Part shown: one piece after another, positions 2,258-26,496 of the stretch
Layout of the letters: each line of letters begins with the position of its first letter
Position numbering within the stretch: the first letter of the stretch is position 1
IMG/VR virus record: IMGVR_UViG_3300035698_018616
Strand: one strand, 5' to 3'
DNA: 29,934 nucleotides
DNA from: a virus
Program-made: the position numbers and the translations under genes
The notes under the pieces: model-generated
What the model was told of the DNA's origin: nothing
Databases searched by the model: none
Seen by the model: only the letters and a program-made list of their open reading frames with translations

Positions 2258-3052
2258 ATGACAATAGGATTATATAATGCGGATAAGAGACTGTTAAAGT
2301 CCTTATCCGCAAAAATCAACATTATAGATCTTGATACTTCATTTCCTAAACTGAAGGGTTTGTTCATCGATTGGATTGACACTACAAACAGAAAGAAACC
2401 ATCCAAGAAATTTGCTCACCAAGCCGCTCTAATAAGTTACTATTCCAAAAAGAATATACCTATAATGATATATGATAGGCATATGTGTATAACCCAAAAG
2501 GAATTGAAGTGGCTGAAAAAGTTCTATGCTCACCTATTTGAACCTGCATTGAATAATAGAAAGGATTTTGAGTACTTACCTTACTGTATAGAACTGGATG
2601 ATAACAAACTATTGGATTATGAAGGTGGTAGAGAATATCATTTAGGTCACATAGGACTACAAACTGATTCCTTTGAGAAGTATTATGTTGGTCATCGAGA
2701 AAAGTTTCCGGATTCCAACTTTCATTACAAGGTTGAGAATTGGGAAGAAATACAATATATGGTAGCTATTGATAGTAAACATAATTACAGTATAGGTTAT
2801 TTGAATCAAAATGTTATTGATGCTTTGGAACATGGATGTATGGTGCTATGTCCTATAGAGCATAAATATTACAGTAATATGTTTTATGGTAATGTTGTAG
2901 GTGATATTAATTTTATTGATTACTGGATGAATATGAACCATGATATGAGGATTGCTTCTATAATGGGTGTATATGAGAATGTAAAAGAGAGATATCCAGA
3001 GTTTACCATAGGGCATTGGACTAAGAAAATAATAGAGGTGTTTGATAAATGA
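2258..3052 (+). CDS. divergent GT-B fold glycosyltransferase-like protein (possibly T4 beta-glucosyltransferase-like)
   Basis: C-terminal MVAIDSKHNYSIGYLNQNVIDALEHGCMVLCP resembles the GT-B donor-binding helix-strand (E/D-A-x-x-x-G-x-x-V-L); YHLGHIG matches the first strand of the C-domain. Confidence 0.45.
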   Translation: MTIGLYNADKRLLKSLSAKINIIDLDTSFPKLKGLFIDWIDTTNRKKPSKKFAHQAALISYYSKKNIPIMIYDRHMCITQKELKWLKKFYAHLFEPALNNRKDFEYLPYCIELDDNKLLDYEGGREYHLGHIGLQTDSFEKYYVGHREKFPDSNFHYKVENWEEIQYMVAIDSKHNYSIGYLNQNVIDALEHGCMVLCPIEHKYYSNMFYGNVVGDINFIDYWMNMNHDMRIASIMGVYENVKERYPEFTIGHWTKKIIEVFDK

Positions 3053-3372
3053 CCGATGTTGTAATGAGAAGACTTTTAGATACTGCTTCTGAGAGAATTG
3101 AAGTATTAAAAAGAATGACTGATGTACAATGTGAACATGGTAATTGGAATCATGATCCATATATGCACGGCATGGCGAATGCGATGATCTATGCTGTGGC
3201 TATAATGTGTAATTCTGAACCCGAATATCTTAATGCTCCTGATGTATGGTTAAAGGATGTTGATAGTGATGATGTAGAACCTATTGAGTCTCGTGAGGAA
3301 GTAGTGAGAGAAAGGGATTATAGAGGAATAAGTAATGAATGGATAAATATTCTGTTTGGAGAAGAATTATGA
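3049..3372 (+). CDS. hypothetical protein (107 aa) ending in a degenerate copy of the shared C-terminal tag
   Basis: ATGA overlaps at both ends; ends ...SNEWINILFGEEL*. Confidence 0.75.
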   Translation: MTDVVMRRLLDTASERIEVLKRMTDVQCEHGNWNHDPYMHGMANAMIYAVAIMCNSEPEYLNAPDVWLKDVDSDDVEPIESREEVVRERDYRGISNEWINILFGEEL

Positions 3373-3542
3373 ATGATATATCCCGTTATGAAAGATTGAC
3401 AAGGGATTTTTTAGCACCTTATCAAAAAGAATTATTAGAAGCTATGGCTCAAGGGATGATAATGACACCATCTTTCCTCGATATTCTTAAAAAATCGGAT
3501 GAATGGGAAGAAGTTAGTAAGTTATTTAAGGAAGAGCTATGA
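3369..3542 (+). CDS. 57-aa mini-protein with shared C-terminal tag
   Basis: Start moved to the ATG at 3369 (ATGA overlap, GGAGAAG RBS); ends KKSDEWEEVSKLFKEEL*. Confidence 0.75.
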   Translation: MNDISRYERLTRDFLAPYQKELLEAMAQGMIMTPSFLDILKKSDEWEEVSKLFKEEL

Positions 3543-18123: not shown

Positions 18124-19263
18124 TTACCTCCATTTTATATCTGGCATTATAACTTTAGGATTTATGTTACTCCTATAAGGTTCAAGGTCCTTTAACATCC
18201 CTTCTATTTCTCTTTCCATATCAGTTGTAGGTTCATAGCCGAGATCGAATAGTTTTTGATGGTCTGGTTTATAGTAGTGGTTCTCCACTTCTGTCCTTGG
18301 ATTTGGTATATTGATGATTTCAGTACTATATCCAAGTTCCTGTGCTTTGCTCCATACCATATAAGCCAAGTCTTTCAATGTGTACACTTCCTCGAATTGA
18401 TTTAGAACTCTATATTCTCCTTCTTCTGGTGGATTATCTATAGCTAAGTTAAGACATTGCATTGAATCCTTTAGAGGTAGAAATCCTCTCTTTTGCCCAC
18501 CTGTACCATAGAGAGTAATAGGTTCTCTCGCTATTGCTTGGGAACAGAATCTATTGATGACAGTACCGAAGCATTGGTCATAATCAAAACGAGTATGTAG
18601 TCTTTCATCATTTTCCATTTCAGGTATTTTTGTTCCATATACTACACCTTGCATTATATCAGTTGATTTTAAATTCCATGTCTTACAGGCGAATTGAATA
18701 TTAGTGCTATCATGGACTTTAGTAGCATGATAAAAACTTCCTGGTTGTTTAGGAAATGGTAACATGGACTTCCTACCTTTATATTCTACTTCTATGGGGC
18801 CTTCAGGTATAGCAATGTTTGGAGTGCCATATTCTCCAAGAGTTCCGAGTTTTACCAAATGAGCATTCGGACAATGTTCTTTCATAGCATAGAGTATATT
18901 CAAAGTCCCTATTACATTATTATTGTGAGTATATACAGCCTTGGCATTATTCATCATGGAATAAGGTGCAGAAGGCATTTCAGCTAAATGGACTATAGTA
19001 TCTGGTTGGAAGTTTTTGATATCTCTAGAAATACTAGAATAATTCATAACATTTCCAAAAGTAAAGGTGCCACCAAATTTTCTAATAAGACCTTCTCTAT
19101 CTATCATACTTTTAATGGGTAATAAAGATTCTCCACCCACCTCTCTTACCCATCTCCTACGATCACCAGTATCAATACAGAATACTTCATATCCCTTAGA
19201 CAAAAGATAAAGTGATAGAGACCATCCTAAATATCCATCAGCACCTAAAATACATACACGCAT
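18124..19263 (-). CDS. sqdB: UDP-sulfoquinovose synthase (SqdB/SQD1/Agl3 family)
   Basis: GADGYLGW, HLAEMPSAPYSM, LVKLGTLGEYGTPN, PKQPGSFYHATKVHDS, QGVVYG, RFDYD..FGTVINRFC. Confidence 0.92.
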   Translation of the reverse strand: MRVCILGADGYLGWSLSLYLLSKGYEVFCIDTGDRRRWVREVGGESLLPIKSMIDREGLIRKFGGTFTFGNVMNYSSISRDIKNFQPDTIVHLAEMPSAPYSMMNNAKAVYTHNNNVIGTLNILYAMKEHCPNAHLVKLGTLGEYGTPNIAIPEGPIEVEYKGRKSMLPFPKQPGSFYHATKVHDSTNIQFACKTWNLKSTDIMQGVVYGTKIPEMENDERLHTRFDYDQCFGTVINRFCSQAIAREPITLYGTGGQKRGFLPLKDSMQCLNLAIDNPPEEGEYRVLNQFEEVYTLKDLAYMVWSKAQELGYSTEIINIPNPRTEVENHYYKPDHQKLFDLGYEPTTDMEREIEGMLKDLEPYRSNINPKVIMPDIKWR

Positions 19264-19454
19264 TACAACTCCTCCTTAAACAATTTATCTATATCATCCC
19301 AATCGGATTTTTTCCTATACCACATTTCAAATTCTGGTTTATTCTGCTCTTCCATCCACCAATCACATAAATATTCTTGTTTCCATTTATCTCCAAATAC
19401 AGGTACCATTTCTGATAAATCAACTTCTCTAATATAAACCCCCGGTGCTTTCAT
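19263..19454 (-). CDS. 63-aa mini-protein with tail-sheath-like N-terminal motif and shared C-terminal tag
   Basis: MKAPGVYIREVDLS ... RKKSDWDDIDKLFKEEL*; coupled to both neighbours. Confidence 0.75.
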   Translation of the reverse strand: MKAPGVYIREVDLSEMVPVFGDKWKQEYLCDWWMEEQNKPEFEMWYRKKSDWDDIDKLFKEEL

Positions 19455-19615
19455 CACAACTCCCCTTTTTGTACTGGCATAGTTATACCAGTCGCTAAGA
19501 TTTCATGTACTTCTGTAGGCTCAACCCAGAAAGTGGTATTATCACTGAATGTTATACTGACCTTCAGGGGGGAAATGGAATATTCTTTTATAGTCTTCCC
19601 TTTTAGATCATTCAT
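19454..19615 (-). CDS. 53-aa small protein (not in ORF track)
   Basis: MNDLKGKTIKEYSISPLKVSITFSDNTTFWVEPTEVHEILATGITMPVQKGEL*; ATGA and TGATG overlaps; AAGGAG RBS. Confidence 0.65.
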   Translation of the reverse strand: MNDLKGKTIKEYSISPLKVSITFSDNTTFWVEPTEVHEILATGITMPVQKGEL

Positions 19616-19848
19616 AATTTCTCCTTGAACATTTTATCCACTTCATCCCAATCTGAATTCCTCTTTTTTAGAGTTTTTTGACCCCATATAATAGCTCCAG
19701 GTTCTATAGATATTTCATTATTAGATGCTGGCTGAACCCACGTTATATCACCAGTATCACCAGTACCATCAGCATTTGTTATTGTCCAAGTAGTTGCTGC
19801 CGTTCCAGTATCATTTCCTGTCACGTATGCCGTTCCATCATATTCCAT
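19612..19848 (-). CDS. 78-aa Thr/Gly/Asp-rich mini-protein with shared C-terminal tag
   Basis: MEYDGTAYVTGNDTGTAATTWTITNADGTGDTGD... KKRNSDWDEVDKMFKEKL*; TAATG coupling at 19848. Confidence 0.75.
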   Translation of the reverse strand: MEYDGTAYVTGNDTGTAATTWTITNADGTGDTGDITWVQPASNNEISIEPGAIIWGQKTLKKRNSDWDEVDKMFKEKL

Positions 19849-20666
19849 TAAGTAACTCTCCACATATCAATCATAAAATCATCATTCCTTGGAGGGTTCC
19901 AATATACTTTTCCTGGTTTATATCCATTTAACCTCACAGATCCCCCTTCACCATGTTTTTGCCTTCCTAAATGCTTCATATAGTAACCATTATTTAATTG
20001 CATATATTCTTCCCTGGTTTTATTTCCACCAAATTCCTTTAAACAGCATAATCCATATCCAAGAAAGTAAGTTCCTGTATTCTCCATTACCCATTCAGGT
20101 CCTCTAACAAGGTCACCTTTCAGTATATCATTCATTCTCCAGTGTATATTCTTATCAAAGCTCTTCCAAAAAGGTTTAATATAGGATGCTCTCCATAAGG
20201 CGGGTGTAAATGCCCAATGAGGGTCAGTAACTAAAGGTACACCATCCCTTACTACTTGCTTCTTAGTAAAATAATTCCCTCTCTTCCATGATATGCGTCT
20301 CTTATGAAAAGCTATCTGGTTGATTCCAGGATGTTTGTCCATCAAGTCTACTAATGGGTTCAAATCTAAAGGTTTTATTAGTTCATAATCATCCTCAACA
20401 TTCAGTATATAAGGAGTATTGGTTTGTTCTAATAACCAAGTTAGTGATGGTCCTTGTCCTATAGGTGTTTGGTTAACTTTGGATACATCATATATACCAA
20501 CTTCATTTATATAATCAGTACATTGTTTTGACCATTCTTCATGTAAAGAATCTTCATGTATCAGCCATCGAAATCCTCCATCATATTTCAAGTTCTTCTG
20601 TAGTGCTTCTGTAGTAGTTTTAAGATAATCAGGTCTGGAAGCACTTGTCCTCATTATATCAATCAT
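19848..20666 (-). CDS. GT-A (GT2-like) glycosyltransferase, paralogue of 25744-26496
   Basis: RTSASRPDYL, IHED, PYILNVEDD, WAFTPALWR; start at MIDIMRT by comparison with the paralogue. Confidence 0.8.
   Translation of the reverse strand: MIDIMRTSASRPDYLKTTTEALQKNLKYDGGFRWLIHEDSLHEEWSKQCTDYINEVGIYDVSKVNQTPIGQGPSLTWLLEQTNTPYILNVEDDYELIKPLDLNPLVDLMDKHPGINQIAFHKRRISWKRGNYFTKKQVVRDGVPLVTDPHWAFTPALWRASYIKPFWKSFDKNIHWRMNDILKGDLVRGPEWVMENTGTYFLGYGLCCLKEFGGNKTREEYMQLNNGYYMKHLGRQKHGEGGSVRLNGYKPGKVYWNPPRNDDFMIDMWRVT
20203..20258. repeat. 56-bp perfect direct repeat, copy 1 (copy 2 at 26030-26085)
   Basis: ggtgtaaatgcccaatgagggtcagtaactaaaggtacaccatcccttactacttg is identical at both sites. Confidence 0.92.
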
Positions 20667-21711
20667 TATAGAACACCTGATCACTTGTTCTCATAAACCT
20701 TCTTCCTATAGGTATCTTATCCTGATAGGCCCTTACCTCATCATCGGTTATCTCATCAAGCATCATTTGAATAGCTAAATAAGGCTCACAAAAACCTTTA
20801 TCATATATGTAAGTACTTAGTCTTGGATTAACTTCTATCACTTTATCCCCTATGAACTGAACACCGTTACAATACTTCAATCCTAATTCCTTTGTTATCT
20901 TCTTACACATCTCAACATGGTAGGGAGAATCTACCAATACACCTTTAGAGCTTAGACCGTACTTGGATTCCTCTCTTATCTTTACTGTAACTAATAGAGC
21001 ATCACTATCTTCATTTGCTAATACCATGCAGTCGTATTCGGTCCCTTCTACAAATTCACACAGAAGTAGATCGGGTAATTGATTTTCGTTCTCAAATAGT
21101 TTTATGAAGGTATCCATACTTATATATGGCTTGAATGGCCTCTCTTTAAACAATATATCAATGTCATTCCTATTTTTATCTATTATACGAAACCCTCTTG
21201 AACCCTTACCTATATATGGTTTAAAGCATATCTTTTTACTTGGATATCCTAAATGGAAGGCTCCAGCTTCAAAATCATCAAGGTCATAAGGTGTAAAATA
21301 TTTGGGTATAGGTATATCAGCTTTCTTTAATTTTTCATACAACAAAAGTTTATCTTCAACATCTTTGATAACCTTGTAATCATTAACCATTAACCATTAA
21401 CTTACATCCATTTACAGATTTTATTTGTGGTTTCATAGCTGCTATCTTTGCTATTTCTAAACTTGATTCAGGTATTACAATATCAGGTTTCTCATTAAAT
21501 ATCACATCAAACAATTCTAATTTAAAATAACCATCTGATGCAGGAGGAACTTGATGGAACTTATCAACCATAAATCTACCACTTGCATTTTCATCCATAT
21601 CTGTACCTATAATTTCAATATCACGCTCTTTAAAATAGCCTTGAGTTGTTTGAATAGAGGTATAAAACCTGGTGTTCCACATGCAGTTATTAGTATTTTA
21701 AGATTCTTCAT
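20659..21711 (-). pseudogene. ATP-grasp ligase interrupted by two frameshifts
   Basis: Three frames join: MKNLKILITACGTPG... (21711), KERDIEIIGTDMD...VPPASD...KPDIVIP, and DKLLLY...KPYIGKGSRGFRII...EFVEGTEY...IEVNPR; breaks at 21632-21635 and at the 7-bp repeat 21381-21401. Confidence 0.82.
21381..21401. repeat. 7-bp tandem repeat (CATTAAC) x3
   Basis: cattaac cattaac cattaac read directly. Confidence 0.95.
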
Positions 21712-22192: not shown

Positions 22193-22346
22193 TGCCCTCT
22201 CTTACTAGCTTTATACCGATATAATCAGCAGGCGTTAGTCCATTTTTATGAAACACATGGCTAATTTTATATGATTGAAGCCATTGTTTTTCAAATTCCG
22301 TTTCTGGTAATATCATTAAGCTATTGTTTATAATTTCAGTTTTCAT
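22179..22346 (-). CDS. 55-aa small protein (not in ORF track)
   Basis: MKTEIINNSLMILPETEFEKQWLQSYKISHVFHKNGLTPADYIGIKLVREGNEAS*; ATGA overlap; GAGG RBS. Confidence 0.65.
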   Translation of the reverse strand: MKTEIINNSLMILPETEFEKQWLQSYKISHVFHKNGLTPADYIGIKLVREGNEAS

Positions 22347-22519
22347 AGCTCTTCCTCAAATAATTTATTAATATCTCCCCACTCATCTTTTGGAGACCAT
22401 ACTATAACTCTATGAAGATAATCCAATAATATTTTTACATTCTTCCTATCTAATCGAGGATTCCAAATATCTTGTAATATTCTTCTTCTTACATCTGTTA
22501 AAGGAACCGTATCCTCCAT
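22343..22519 (-). CDS. 58-aa mini-protein with shared C-terminal tag (not in ORF track)
   Basis: MEDTVPLTDVRRRILQDIWNPRLDRKNVKILLDYLHRVIVWSPKDEWGDINKLFEEEL*; starts immediately after the upstream TGA. Confidence 0.72.
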   Translation of the reverse strand: MEDTVPLTDVRRRILQDIWNPRLDRKNVKILLDYLHRVIVWSPKDEWGDINKLFEEEL

Positions 22520-23443
22520 TCATATACCCCACTTCCTCACTATCTCTTTACCTTCTGACATATTACTTATATGATTATACAATTCTTTTATCCTTATCGT
22601 GTCTGTATGGCTTTTTAAGAACTCATTATAACCATTTTTACTTATTATATCACATTCATCCTTATTGTCAAGTATCCATTTTCCCTTTTCTGCTATATTA
22701 CTACAATCATCTCTATATTTAACCATACAATCTTCTGATAGAAAGTTATGATCAAAACCAGGACTTAGTAATGTAGAACCGGACGCCATAATTTCAAACA
22801 TTTTGGCATGCGGACTTCTTATACCAGAGTTACCTAACATTGTGTCTGTGAGCATTGCTCTATGTAGCCTTAAAAATGGAGCATATTTGATACCCCCAAT
22901 CTTACCACCATTGTTTATAAGGTTTTCTTGTTCTAATAATTCTATTGCTTTACTTCTTTGGGTATAAGAAGAGGAAGAAGTAGTTCCGGTGAACCCTACT
23001 TTAGGTATTTTCCATTTGGTGGGATAGAATTCTTTCTCGTCAGCTGAATAGGGAACCCACACAGAAGGAATGCCTATATGTTTTTGAAAGGACTCAATAT
23101 CGTATACCCCTCTTTGTATAACGATGTCAAACTGATTATTCTTATACCAATAGAATTTATTCCTTTCTACAATTTTCCTATAATCCACTGCTATCATTAC
23201 CTTCAGACAAGGAATATCCTTCAAGTAACCATCCAATACATCGCTATGAGCTAAGAGTAACATAGCATCAGGTTTGTAATCAGAGTATAATTCTTCAGCT
23301 GAATATATGATACCATCTTTGCTATAGGCTTTGACACCATAATAATCACATAAAGTATTGAGTTTATTGACAAATCCTATATTGATACGATAATTTATTT
23401 TAGTATCTGGATCATGTTCTGGTAATATGGATACTATTCTCAT
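22520..23443 (-). CDS. GT-B glycosyltransferase (CgeB-like)
   Basis: WVPYSAD, KVGFTG, YTQR, HAKMFEIMASGSTLLS, ISKNGY...HT. Confidence 0.82.
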   Translation of the reverse strand: MRIVSILPEHDPDTKINYRINIGFVNKLNTLCDYYGVKAYSKDGIIYSAEELYSDYKPDAMLLLAHSDVLDGYLKDIPCLKVMIAVDYRKIVERNKFYWYKNNQFDIVIQRGVYDIESFQKHIGIPSVWVPYSADEKEFYPTKWKIPKVGFTGTTSSSSYTQRSKAIELLEQENLINNGGKIGGIKYAPFLRLHRAMLTDTMLGNSGIRSPHAKMFEIMASGSTLLSPGFDHNFLSEDCMVKYRDDCSNIAEKGKWILDNKDECDIISKNGYNEFLKSHTDTIRIKELYNHISNMSEGKEIVRKWGI

Positions 23444-25743: not shown

Positions 25744-26496
25744 TTACCCTTTATACCTTCCATGCCTGATAGAACCATCCCCAGTTCCTAAATGGAAGTG
25801 ATACCGTCCATCATCACAATTTAAAGCTTCTTCTTTTGTGAATCCATGATCTTTCATAAGCATATCAATATGTCTTATGCAACCTAACCAATAGGTCCCT
25901 GTGTTAGCAATTACCCAATCAGCATCTCTCATGCCTCTACCACCTTTTAATACCTCATTCATTTTCCAATGCACATTATCAGCAAAACTTACCCATTTAG
26001 GCTTCAAATAGCTTAACCTAAATAAAGAAGGTGTAAATGCCCAATGAGGGTCAGTAACTAAAGGTACACCATCCCTTACTACTTGTTTTTTAACGAAGCC
26101 TGGTTTCTCATGCATTATGGTTCTCTTATGAAATCCTATTTGGTTGATATCGGGATTATTATCCATCAAGTTACATAATGATTCTATATCAATTTCTTTT
26201 ATAGGGTCTTGGTCATCCTCCCAATTTAATACATAAGGTGTTTTGCATTTACCTAATAACCATCCGAGTGAAGCTCCTTGCCCTATAGGTGGATTATGTC
26301 TTTCTATTACACTGTATACACCACTCTCCTTAGCATATCTAATACATTCATCTGACCTTCCACCATCTATTTGATCTTCATGAACCATCCAACGAAAATT
26401 CACCGTTGGTTTTAAGAACTTTACCATTGACTCTGTTGATATCCTTAGATAATCAGGTCTAGATGCTGAAGTTCTCATTATATCTACATCTCTCAT
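25744..26496 (-). CDS. GT-A (GT2-like) glycosyltransferase, paralogue of 19848-20666
   Basis: RTSASRPDYL, VHED, PYVLNWEDD, WAFTPSLFR. Confidence 0.8.
   Translation of the reverse strand: MRDVDIMRTSASRPDYLRISTESMVKFLKPTVNFRWMVHEDQIDGGRSDECIRYAKESGVYSVIERHNPPIGQGASLGWLLGKCKTPYVLNWEDDQDPIKEIDIESLCNLMDNNPDINQIGFHKRTIMHEKPGFVKKQVVRDGVPLVTDPHWAFTPSLFRLSYLKPKWVSFADNVHWKMNEVLKGGRGMRDADWVIANTGTYWLGCIRHIDMLMKDHGFTKEEALNCDDGRYHFHLGTGDGSIRHGRYKG
26030..26085. repeat. 56-bp perfect direct repeat, copy 2
   Basis: Identical to 20203-20258. Confidence 0.92.

Follow-up and report, generated by a model that had tools for sequence, protein, structure and literature searches.

A tail-sheath-type N-terminal arm on a 63-residue protein encoded in a sugar-enzyme operon of a salt-lake T4-like phage

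A small gene of an uncultured salt-lake T4-like phage, here called gene A, encodes a 63-residue mini-protein (P0001) whose N-terminus is, on the sequence comparisons described below, a genuine N-terminal linker of the contractile tail-sheath type. Nothing sheath-like follows this arm and the protein belongs to no Pfam or PHROG family, indicating that P0001 is not a sheath but carries the arm only. Our preferred, although tentative, explanation is that P0001 would mimic a sheath arm and dock on a sheath.

The window analysed here is the whole stretch of 29,934 nt, which corresponds to bases 7153-37086 of the 58.6-kb record IMGVR_UViG_3300035698_018616 (32% G+C; completeness ~24% according to CheckV). 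The record contains T4-type genes for gp47, gp46, UvsX and primase, as well as ribonucleotide reductase and homing endonucleases, and the best matches of its gp47 are T4-like cyanophages (~35% identity). Given the T4-type gp46, gp47, UvsX and primase, a contractile tail is expected for this phage; sheath, tube and clamp genes were not found within the 58.6-kb record, from which the tail module is absent. Its sole structural-looking gene is a fragment at the record start (L001:3-407), the C-terminal part of a tail-fibre-like protein with the motif D-V-Q-A-Y-D-A-D-L-T-T-I-A-G-L. A gp55 identity was considered for the 5'-open ORF at the record start, which proved tail-fibre-like instead, and for a 152-aa ORF after gp47, and was rejected in both cases. 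DNA of the record was found in at least 24 salt-lake metagenome runs from 2017-2019, and no RNA run is listed among the public runs with record DNA. Contigs from four salt-lake runs are identical across gene A, so they carry no population signal; P0001 is also encoded on a contig of 193,676 bp. A 361-aa phage protein at L002:886-1971 matches the Druantia DruA family (PF14236, 4e-22) and adjoins a DNA methylase.

The features discussed below are as follows (window coordinates).
19263..19454, minus strand: gene A, ATG at 19454, encoding the 63-aa mini-protein P0001, plus stop codon
19389..19451, minus strand: sheath-type arm, codons 2-22 (K-A-P-G-V-Y-I-R-E-V-D-L-S-E-M-V-P-V-F-G-D), assigned from tblastn, hhalign and HMM shuffles
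19341..19388, minus strand: Trp-rich helix 1, codons 23-38 (W-K-Q-E-Y-L..W-W-M-E-E-Q-N-K), predicted from conservation in four variants and a low-confidence AF2 helix
19266..19307, minus strand: shared tail, codons 50-63 (S-D-W-D-D-I-D-K-L-F-K-E-E-L), the end of helix 2 (residues 40-62)
19271..19277, minus strand: AAGGAGG, the Shine-Dalgarno sequence of the epimerase gene, inside the K-E-E codons of the tail
18124..19263, minus strand: NAD-dependent sugar epimerase/dehydratase, 379 aa (Pfam PF01370, 2e-22), downstream of A and translationally coupled
19454..19615, minus strand: 53-aa ORF upstream of gene A, its stop overlapping the start of A by one base
19612..19863, minus strand: tagged ORF B, 83 aa, residues 54-76 resembling the sheath inner-domain segment G..LWGQKT....S.FDR[IV]
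22343..22519, minus strand: tagged ORF C, 58 aa, residues 23-38 resembling the sheath helix F-D-R-I-N-V-R-R-L-F
3369..3542, plus strand: tagged ORF D, 57 aa from an ATG overlapping the stop of E, outside the glycan cluster, without sheath similarity
3049..3372, plus strand: tagged ORF E, 107 aa, with a weaker tail (N-E-W-I-N-I-L-F-G-E-E-L), without sheath similarity

The ATG of gene A lies 5 nt downstream of a GGGGAG Shine-Dalgarno sequence, and the last A of its stop codon (TAA at 19263-19265) is the first base of the epimerase ATG. P0001 begins M-K-A-P-G-V-Y-I-R-E-V-D-L-S and ends S-D-W-D-D-I-D-K-L-F-K-E-E-L-stop. In a low-confidence AF2 model (pLDDT 56), residues 1-22 form a coil and residues 23-38 and 40-62 form helices; an unstructured arm ahead of two helices fits a donated strand. 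No sheath similarity was found beyond the arm, the HMM and hhalign matches being confined to residues 2-22. A Pfam search at E<=0.1 gave no family of any kind for P0001, T6SS_VipA included, neither Pfam nor PHROGs gave a family for A, B, C or D, and ESM Atlas contained no usable look-alike of P0001.

When residues 1-23 of P0001 were compared by tblastn with 50,697 phage records, 12 matches were obtained, all of which lay at the N-termini of T4 gp18-type sheaths, in Thermus phage phiLo, Variovorax phage V45v66, Acidovorax phage ACP17 and the Campylobacter phage CP21/CP220 group. Nine are annotated as tail sheath, one falls in an unannotated record, and the two annotated otherwise occupy the same position as in Campylobacter-phage relatives; the V45v66 match, read from its DNA, is the start of a 655-aa gp18-like ORF. 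The E-values of the single matches ranged from 0.4 to 10. Ten reference sheaths were collected, of which nine were used in hhalign and six, comprising only sheaths that had not been found through A, in an HMM. In hhalign, residues 2-22 of the A family aligned with gp18 residues 4-24 (P=9.4e-5). In the six-sheath HMM, A residues 3-17 aligned with positions 6-20, that is, with the N-terminus of the HMM, and the real score was reached by 6 of 3000 shuffles. The same HMM test gave no signal for tagged ORFs D, E and F or for ten further small ORFs of the window, and the 53-aa ORF upstream of A has no sheath similarity. The motif [SA]-P-G-[VI]-x-[IV]-x-E-x-D-x-[ST] directly follows the initiator Met in P0001, as it does in sheaths. 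Over 19 arm positions, A shares 12 residues with phiLo and 12 with V45v66, and the variant from locus L004 shares 13 with phiLo, as compared with a median of 5/19 for sheath-to-sheath pairs, most of which fall below the 12-13 of A; by this measure, the arm of A is as close to real sheath arms as those are to one another. The first-pass annotation had recognised a sheath N-terminal arm on this 63-aa protein from its motif, and the 12/12 tblastn matches, the hhalign P value and the shuffles confirm that call.

These data also bear on the possibility that the resemblance of the arm is due to chance, as the weak single E-values and the missing Pfam and PHROGs matches might suggest. We consider chance exceedingly unlikely: all 12 matches fall in one gene family and at the same protein end, the hhalign P value is low, the shuffling and other-ORF controls were clean, and two further variants conserve the arm.

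The likeness to sheath N-terminal linkers, such as those of T4 gp18, the R-type pyocin and phiCD508 gp55 (PF04984), extends over ~21 residues. Unlike sheaths (PF04984 / PF17482), A has no inner handshake domain, no outer domains and no C-terminal strand, and the inner-domain signature G..L[YW]G[DQ]KT....S.FDRINVRRLF is absent from P0001. Its 63 aa compare with 540-840 aa in the reference sheaths, and whereas these adjoin terminase and tube genes, A stands among sugar enzymes. A small sheath-related protein could also be the small subunit of a two-part sheath, in the manner of TssB/VipA, supplying the linker in trans to an arm-less large sheath protein. TssB is ~170 aa in length, is always paired with TssC and is encoded beside it. 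The architecture of A, a linker followed by helices, does recall TssB, the N-terminal linker of which connects sheath rings (PMC5797969). However, A is only a third of the size of TssB, has no TssB domain (no Pfam match, T6SS_VipA included) and is accompanied by no sheath-family gene in the 58.6-kb record; it lies far from tail genes, among sugar enzymes, its tail is common to unrelated mini-proteins, and one variant is without most of the arm. A two-part sheath is therefore highly improbable in our judgement.

The C-terminal end of P0001 had been described in the first-pass annotation as a shared tag, and this is also correct: the same tail is found on five ORFs of the window, namely A, B, C, D and, in a weaker form, E, with a sixth (F) in L004 and none elsewhere in the 58.6-kb record. 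P0001 conforms to the family pattern W-x-[DE]-[IV]-x-K-[LM]-F-x-E-[EK]-L-stop. Each of the five tagged ORFs of the window has a stop that overlaps the following start codon (as ATGA or TAATG), and in each the purine-rich [KE]-E-[EK] codons form the Shine-Dalgarno sequence of the next gene. The closing "[KE]E[EK]L-stop" is accordingly for the most part a coupling signal, which also explains why the untagged 53-aa ORF ends K-G-E-L. Further upstream in the tail, the residues of [SD]-[DE]-W-x-[DE]-[IV]-x-K-[LM]-F are kept while the third codon positions vary across the five copies, indicating that the W..[IV].K[LM]F part is selected at the protein level. A derivation of the tail from the sheath F-D-R-I-N-V-R-R-L-F helix was considered and dropped, the tail alone giving P=0.51 in hhalign; in an ungapped scan of the tail against sheaths, different sheath sites were chosen in different phages.

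In T4, gp43, gp55 and gp33 share one short hydrophobic-acidic C-terminal peptide, attached by a variable linker, that docks on the gp45 sliding clamp (PMC2988020). By analogy, the tail of A may be of the same general kind, an interchangeable C-terminal peptide on unrelated proteins; the likeness is a general one, and the tail of A is in part the ribosome-binding site of the next gene. Three more small ORFs, located before the window between gp47 and gp46, have other tails: that at L001:2758-3054 (98 aa, very acidic) ends E-I-E-D-L-F-V-L, that at L001:3491-3775, with MORN-like repeats, ends A-I-K-D-L-F-V-L, and that at L001:3051-3518 ends E-W-G-E-L-F-T-I-E. These hydrophobic-acidic ends may constitute a second class of shared docking peptide, reminiscent of the T4 clamp-binding ends.

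The coupling signal is central to the main rival of sheath docking. According to this explanation, P0001 would be a by-product of recombination, a leader ORF that delivers ribosomes to the overlapping epimerase start and whose arm has no binding role; illegitimate or microhomology shuffling would have put the start of a sheath gene (its ribosome-binding site and ~21 codons) before other fragments. We regard this as somewhat doubtful, although it accounts directly for the fact that all five tagged stops overlap the next start, with the last codons serving as Shine-Dalgarno sequence. A leader ORF, however, has no need of a conserved 63-residue product, and the protein-level selection on W..[IV].K[LM]F, whose third codon positions vary freely, also argues against it.

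The variants of gene A provide evidence on both sides of this question. The family comprises four variants among ~15 billion proteins: three real relatives, one of which is a 51-aa fragment of A, were recovered when the family profile was run against 1.84 billion cluster representatives, and a metagenome scan returned two loci with DNA, L004 and L005, in both of which the same epimerase again directly follows gene A. L004 and P0006 retain A-P-G-V-Y-I-[RK]-E-[VI]-D-[LI]-S, so that the arm is present in three of the four variants. P0006 (62 aa) has diverged most and has kept the arm and the tail best, with 10 of 12 arm residues identical and, in the middle, roughly half (by-eye counts). The arm thus ranks, with the tail, among the most strongly conserved parts in three of the four variants, the divergent P0006 included; this favours sheath docking and counts against a leader ORF. 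Trp-rich helix 1 is conserved in all four variants. The leader-ORF explanation is favoured, on the other hand, by the indels and replaced blocks that distinguish the variants in the middle of A, and by L005/P0005, which has lost most of the arm. There the arm reads A-P-R-V-Y-I-E-S-V-P-Y-S and the rest of the gene is kept; the changes that replaced residues 9-23 are tightly clustered, with near-identical sequence on either side. P-R-V-Y is also present in the real phiLo sheath; the arm loss in L005/P0005 is counted against sheath docking. PGVY, proposed earlier as a feature that homologues should keep, is therefore retained in L004 and P0006 and not in L005/P0005.

L004 also carries an extra tagged ORF of 59 aa (F, L004:1077-1256), located exactly between the 53-aa ORF and gene A and flanked by near-identical G-A-G-T-T-G-T-[GA]-A-T-G junctions. 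This insertion suggests gain or loss of a cassette by recombination at the coupling signal, and its position exactly between coupling junctions is a further point for the leader-ORF explanation. Shuffling cassettes in T4-type hyperplastic regions, the PeSL elements, were reportedly described by Arbiol et al. in 2010. Here too small ORFs come and go at conserved junctions, as with the extra ORF in L004; however, a PeSL junction consists of a promoter and a stem-loop, whereas the junction here consists of a coding tail, a Shine-Dalgarno sequence and an overlapping start.

Searches for more distant relatives were negative within their scope. In a collection of 5.8 billion clusters, no longer protein had three 5-residue words in common with A, a longer-protein search with the B alignment found nothing, and scans of viral contigs with P0001, UvsX, the alignment of the 278-aa family described below and the back-translated tail pattern found no relatives. 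A repetitive 493-aa protein, P0007, was rejected as a spurious family match. The product of gene A is restricted to this phage lineage.

Two other tagged ORFs also contain segments that resemble sheaths. Residues 54-76 of B (G-A-I-I-W-G-Q-K-T-L-K-K-R-N-S-D-W-D-E-V-D) align over 23 residues, without gaps, with gp18 530-552, the region of the most conserved inner-domain segment of sheaths (hhalign P=0.0016), and the aligned stretch reaches into the first half of the tail. With B as the tblastn query, 15 of 15 matches were in sheath genes of Campylobacter phages, which amount effectively to one or two independent matches; the real score was reached by 3 of 3000 shuffles with nine sheaths and by 420 of 3000 with six. 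The N-terminal half of B is Thr/Gly-rich and faintly matches the C-terminal end of phrog_36697, a long protein family with no assigned function (E=0.04). C has L-D-R-K-N-V-K-I-L-L-D-Y-L just ahead of its tail, and 10-11 of 3000 shuffles reached its real score with both HMMs; this segment is also loosely like the tail itself and may be an internal repeat of it. Taken together, these alignments are suggestive of pieces of sheath genes in several tagged ORFs, in B and more weakly in C. Being internal, the segments of B and C could not serve as arms; they suggest debris scattered from sheath genes, a point for the leader-ORF explanation. It could alternatively be imagined that the tagged mini-proteins form a toolkit of sheath-derived peptides on a common docking helix and act on contractile sheaths, with A bringing the N-terminal arm and B and C bringing inner-domain segments; such a set might cap, time or poison sheath polymerisation, either in the tail of this phage or in rival myophages, tailocins or T6SS. 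We know of no phage-encoded sheath regulator of this kind, and we consider the toolkit improbable.

The genomic setting of A is that of a sugar-enzyme operon and not of a tail module; its neighbours are the epimerase, small ORFs and glycosyltransferase-like genes, and it is translationally coupled at both ends, which is counted against sheath docking. A perfect sigma-70 consensus promoter (TTGACA, 16 nt, TG-TATAAT) lies at 22644-22671 on the minus strand, inside the 3' end of a 307-aa gene and just upstream of tagged ORF C, and the host polymerase may use it to transcribe the genes from C through A to the epimerase early on. For the T4 late promoter TATAAATA, no enrichment was found. A sigma-70-type promoter upstream in the operon, together with late promoters that are not enriched, is likewise counted against sheath docking. 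Within the same region, the middle of the 53-aa ORF (19501-19591) has a copy of 86% identity (13 differences in 91 nt) on other contigs, the flanks of which are unlike this phage and the depth of which is up to ~6-fold higher in the same salt-lake runs; it appears to be a short module in common with another, more abundant genome. Two paralogues of 278 aa (19848-20684, minus strand) and 250 aa (25744-26496, minus strand) are 53% identical to each other; neither belongs to a Pfam or PHROG family, and IMG/VR contains no relatives of them. Tagged ORF B directly follows the 278-aa paralogue.

The first-pass annotation had proposed, as one of two readings, that P0001 is an adaptor tethering glycosylation enzymes to the tail sheath. 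This proposal found no support in the distribution of the tail. D and E, the latter of which matches phrog_23796 (8e-7), adjoin uvsX outside the glycan cluster, indicating that the tail is not specific to glycosylation. Nor does the tag itself furnish a link to the enzymes, since part of it serves as the ribosome-binding site of the next gene and overlaps the start of that gene, and no partner of the tail was identified.

In contractile tails, the sheath N-terminal linker is part of the mesh that ties subunits together and works as a hinge (PMC11948020, PMC5797969). A complex model with a sheath, as the first-pass annotation had suggested, was obtained with T4 gp18 as a distant stand-in, using gp18 residues 21-659, which lack the gp18 arm. 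A with this partner scored 0.59 (runs of 0.59, 0.63 and 0.49), against 0.00 for the best control, a result that constitutes weak support. Of 80 solved complexes, 58 passed the mark for the complex score, as did 2 of 110 mismatched pairs, and at 0.60 or under the passing cases were just 7 of the 80 solved complexes and both of the passing mismatches. At least 39% of contacts agreed between runs, and the pLDDT of the partner was at least 47. The pass may stem from the model's memory of solved sheath polymers, and we therefore read it as predicted likeness rather than binding.

A docking arm might also serve as a decoy or inhibitor that poisons sheath polymerisation of co-infecting myophages, tailocins or T6SS, or that soaks up a host defence protein recognising sheath N-termini. 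The first-pass annotation had offered a decoy as its alternative, and we consider it unlikely. In its favour, the arm is near the consensus of several distant sheath clades and not of one, the distant T4 sheath gave the weak predicted docking described above, and the possible promoter upstream is of an early, host type. On the other side, no report of a defence system that senses sheath arms was found, such a decoy would also poison the sheath of its own phage unless the arm site there differs, and the family is confined to one phage lineage. The decoy, the two-part sheath and chance are all less likely than a docking mimic and than the leader ORF.

We thus return to the docking mimic as a possible and, to us, preferable account, without attaching great confidence to it. 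P0001 would be built of three pieces: a free, flexible copy of the arm, the source of which was probably the 5' end of a sheath gene; the Trp-rich helix; and an acidic amphipathic helix with the shared tail. In a closed sheath, neighbouring subunits fill the arm acceptor sites, and free sites are consequently present only on monomers or terminal rings, which is a point against docking. The arm of A would add a beta-strand to the inner domain of a sheath subunit, at the usual place of the neighbour's arm. P0001 would in this way cap or occupy the handshake site on a contractile sheath, most simply that of this phage itself, and would thereby regulate polymerisation or place its C-terminal helix, with whatever binds it, on the tail.

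To our knowledge, sheath arms are known only within sheath proteins or TssB, and a free-standing 63-residue protein with a sheath arm would be a natural arm peptide. If P0001 binds, it would offer a handle on the start, capping or blocking of sheath polymerisation and might serve as a template in designing peptides against contractile injection systems. Should P0001 not bind, the locus would still be an example of how structural-gene pieces and reusable C-terminal junction cassettes are combined into new phage ORFs.
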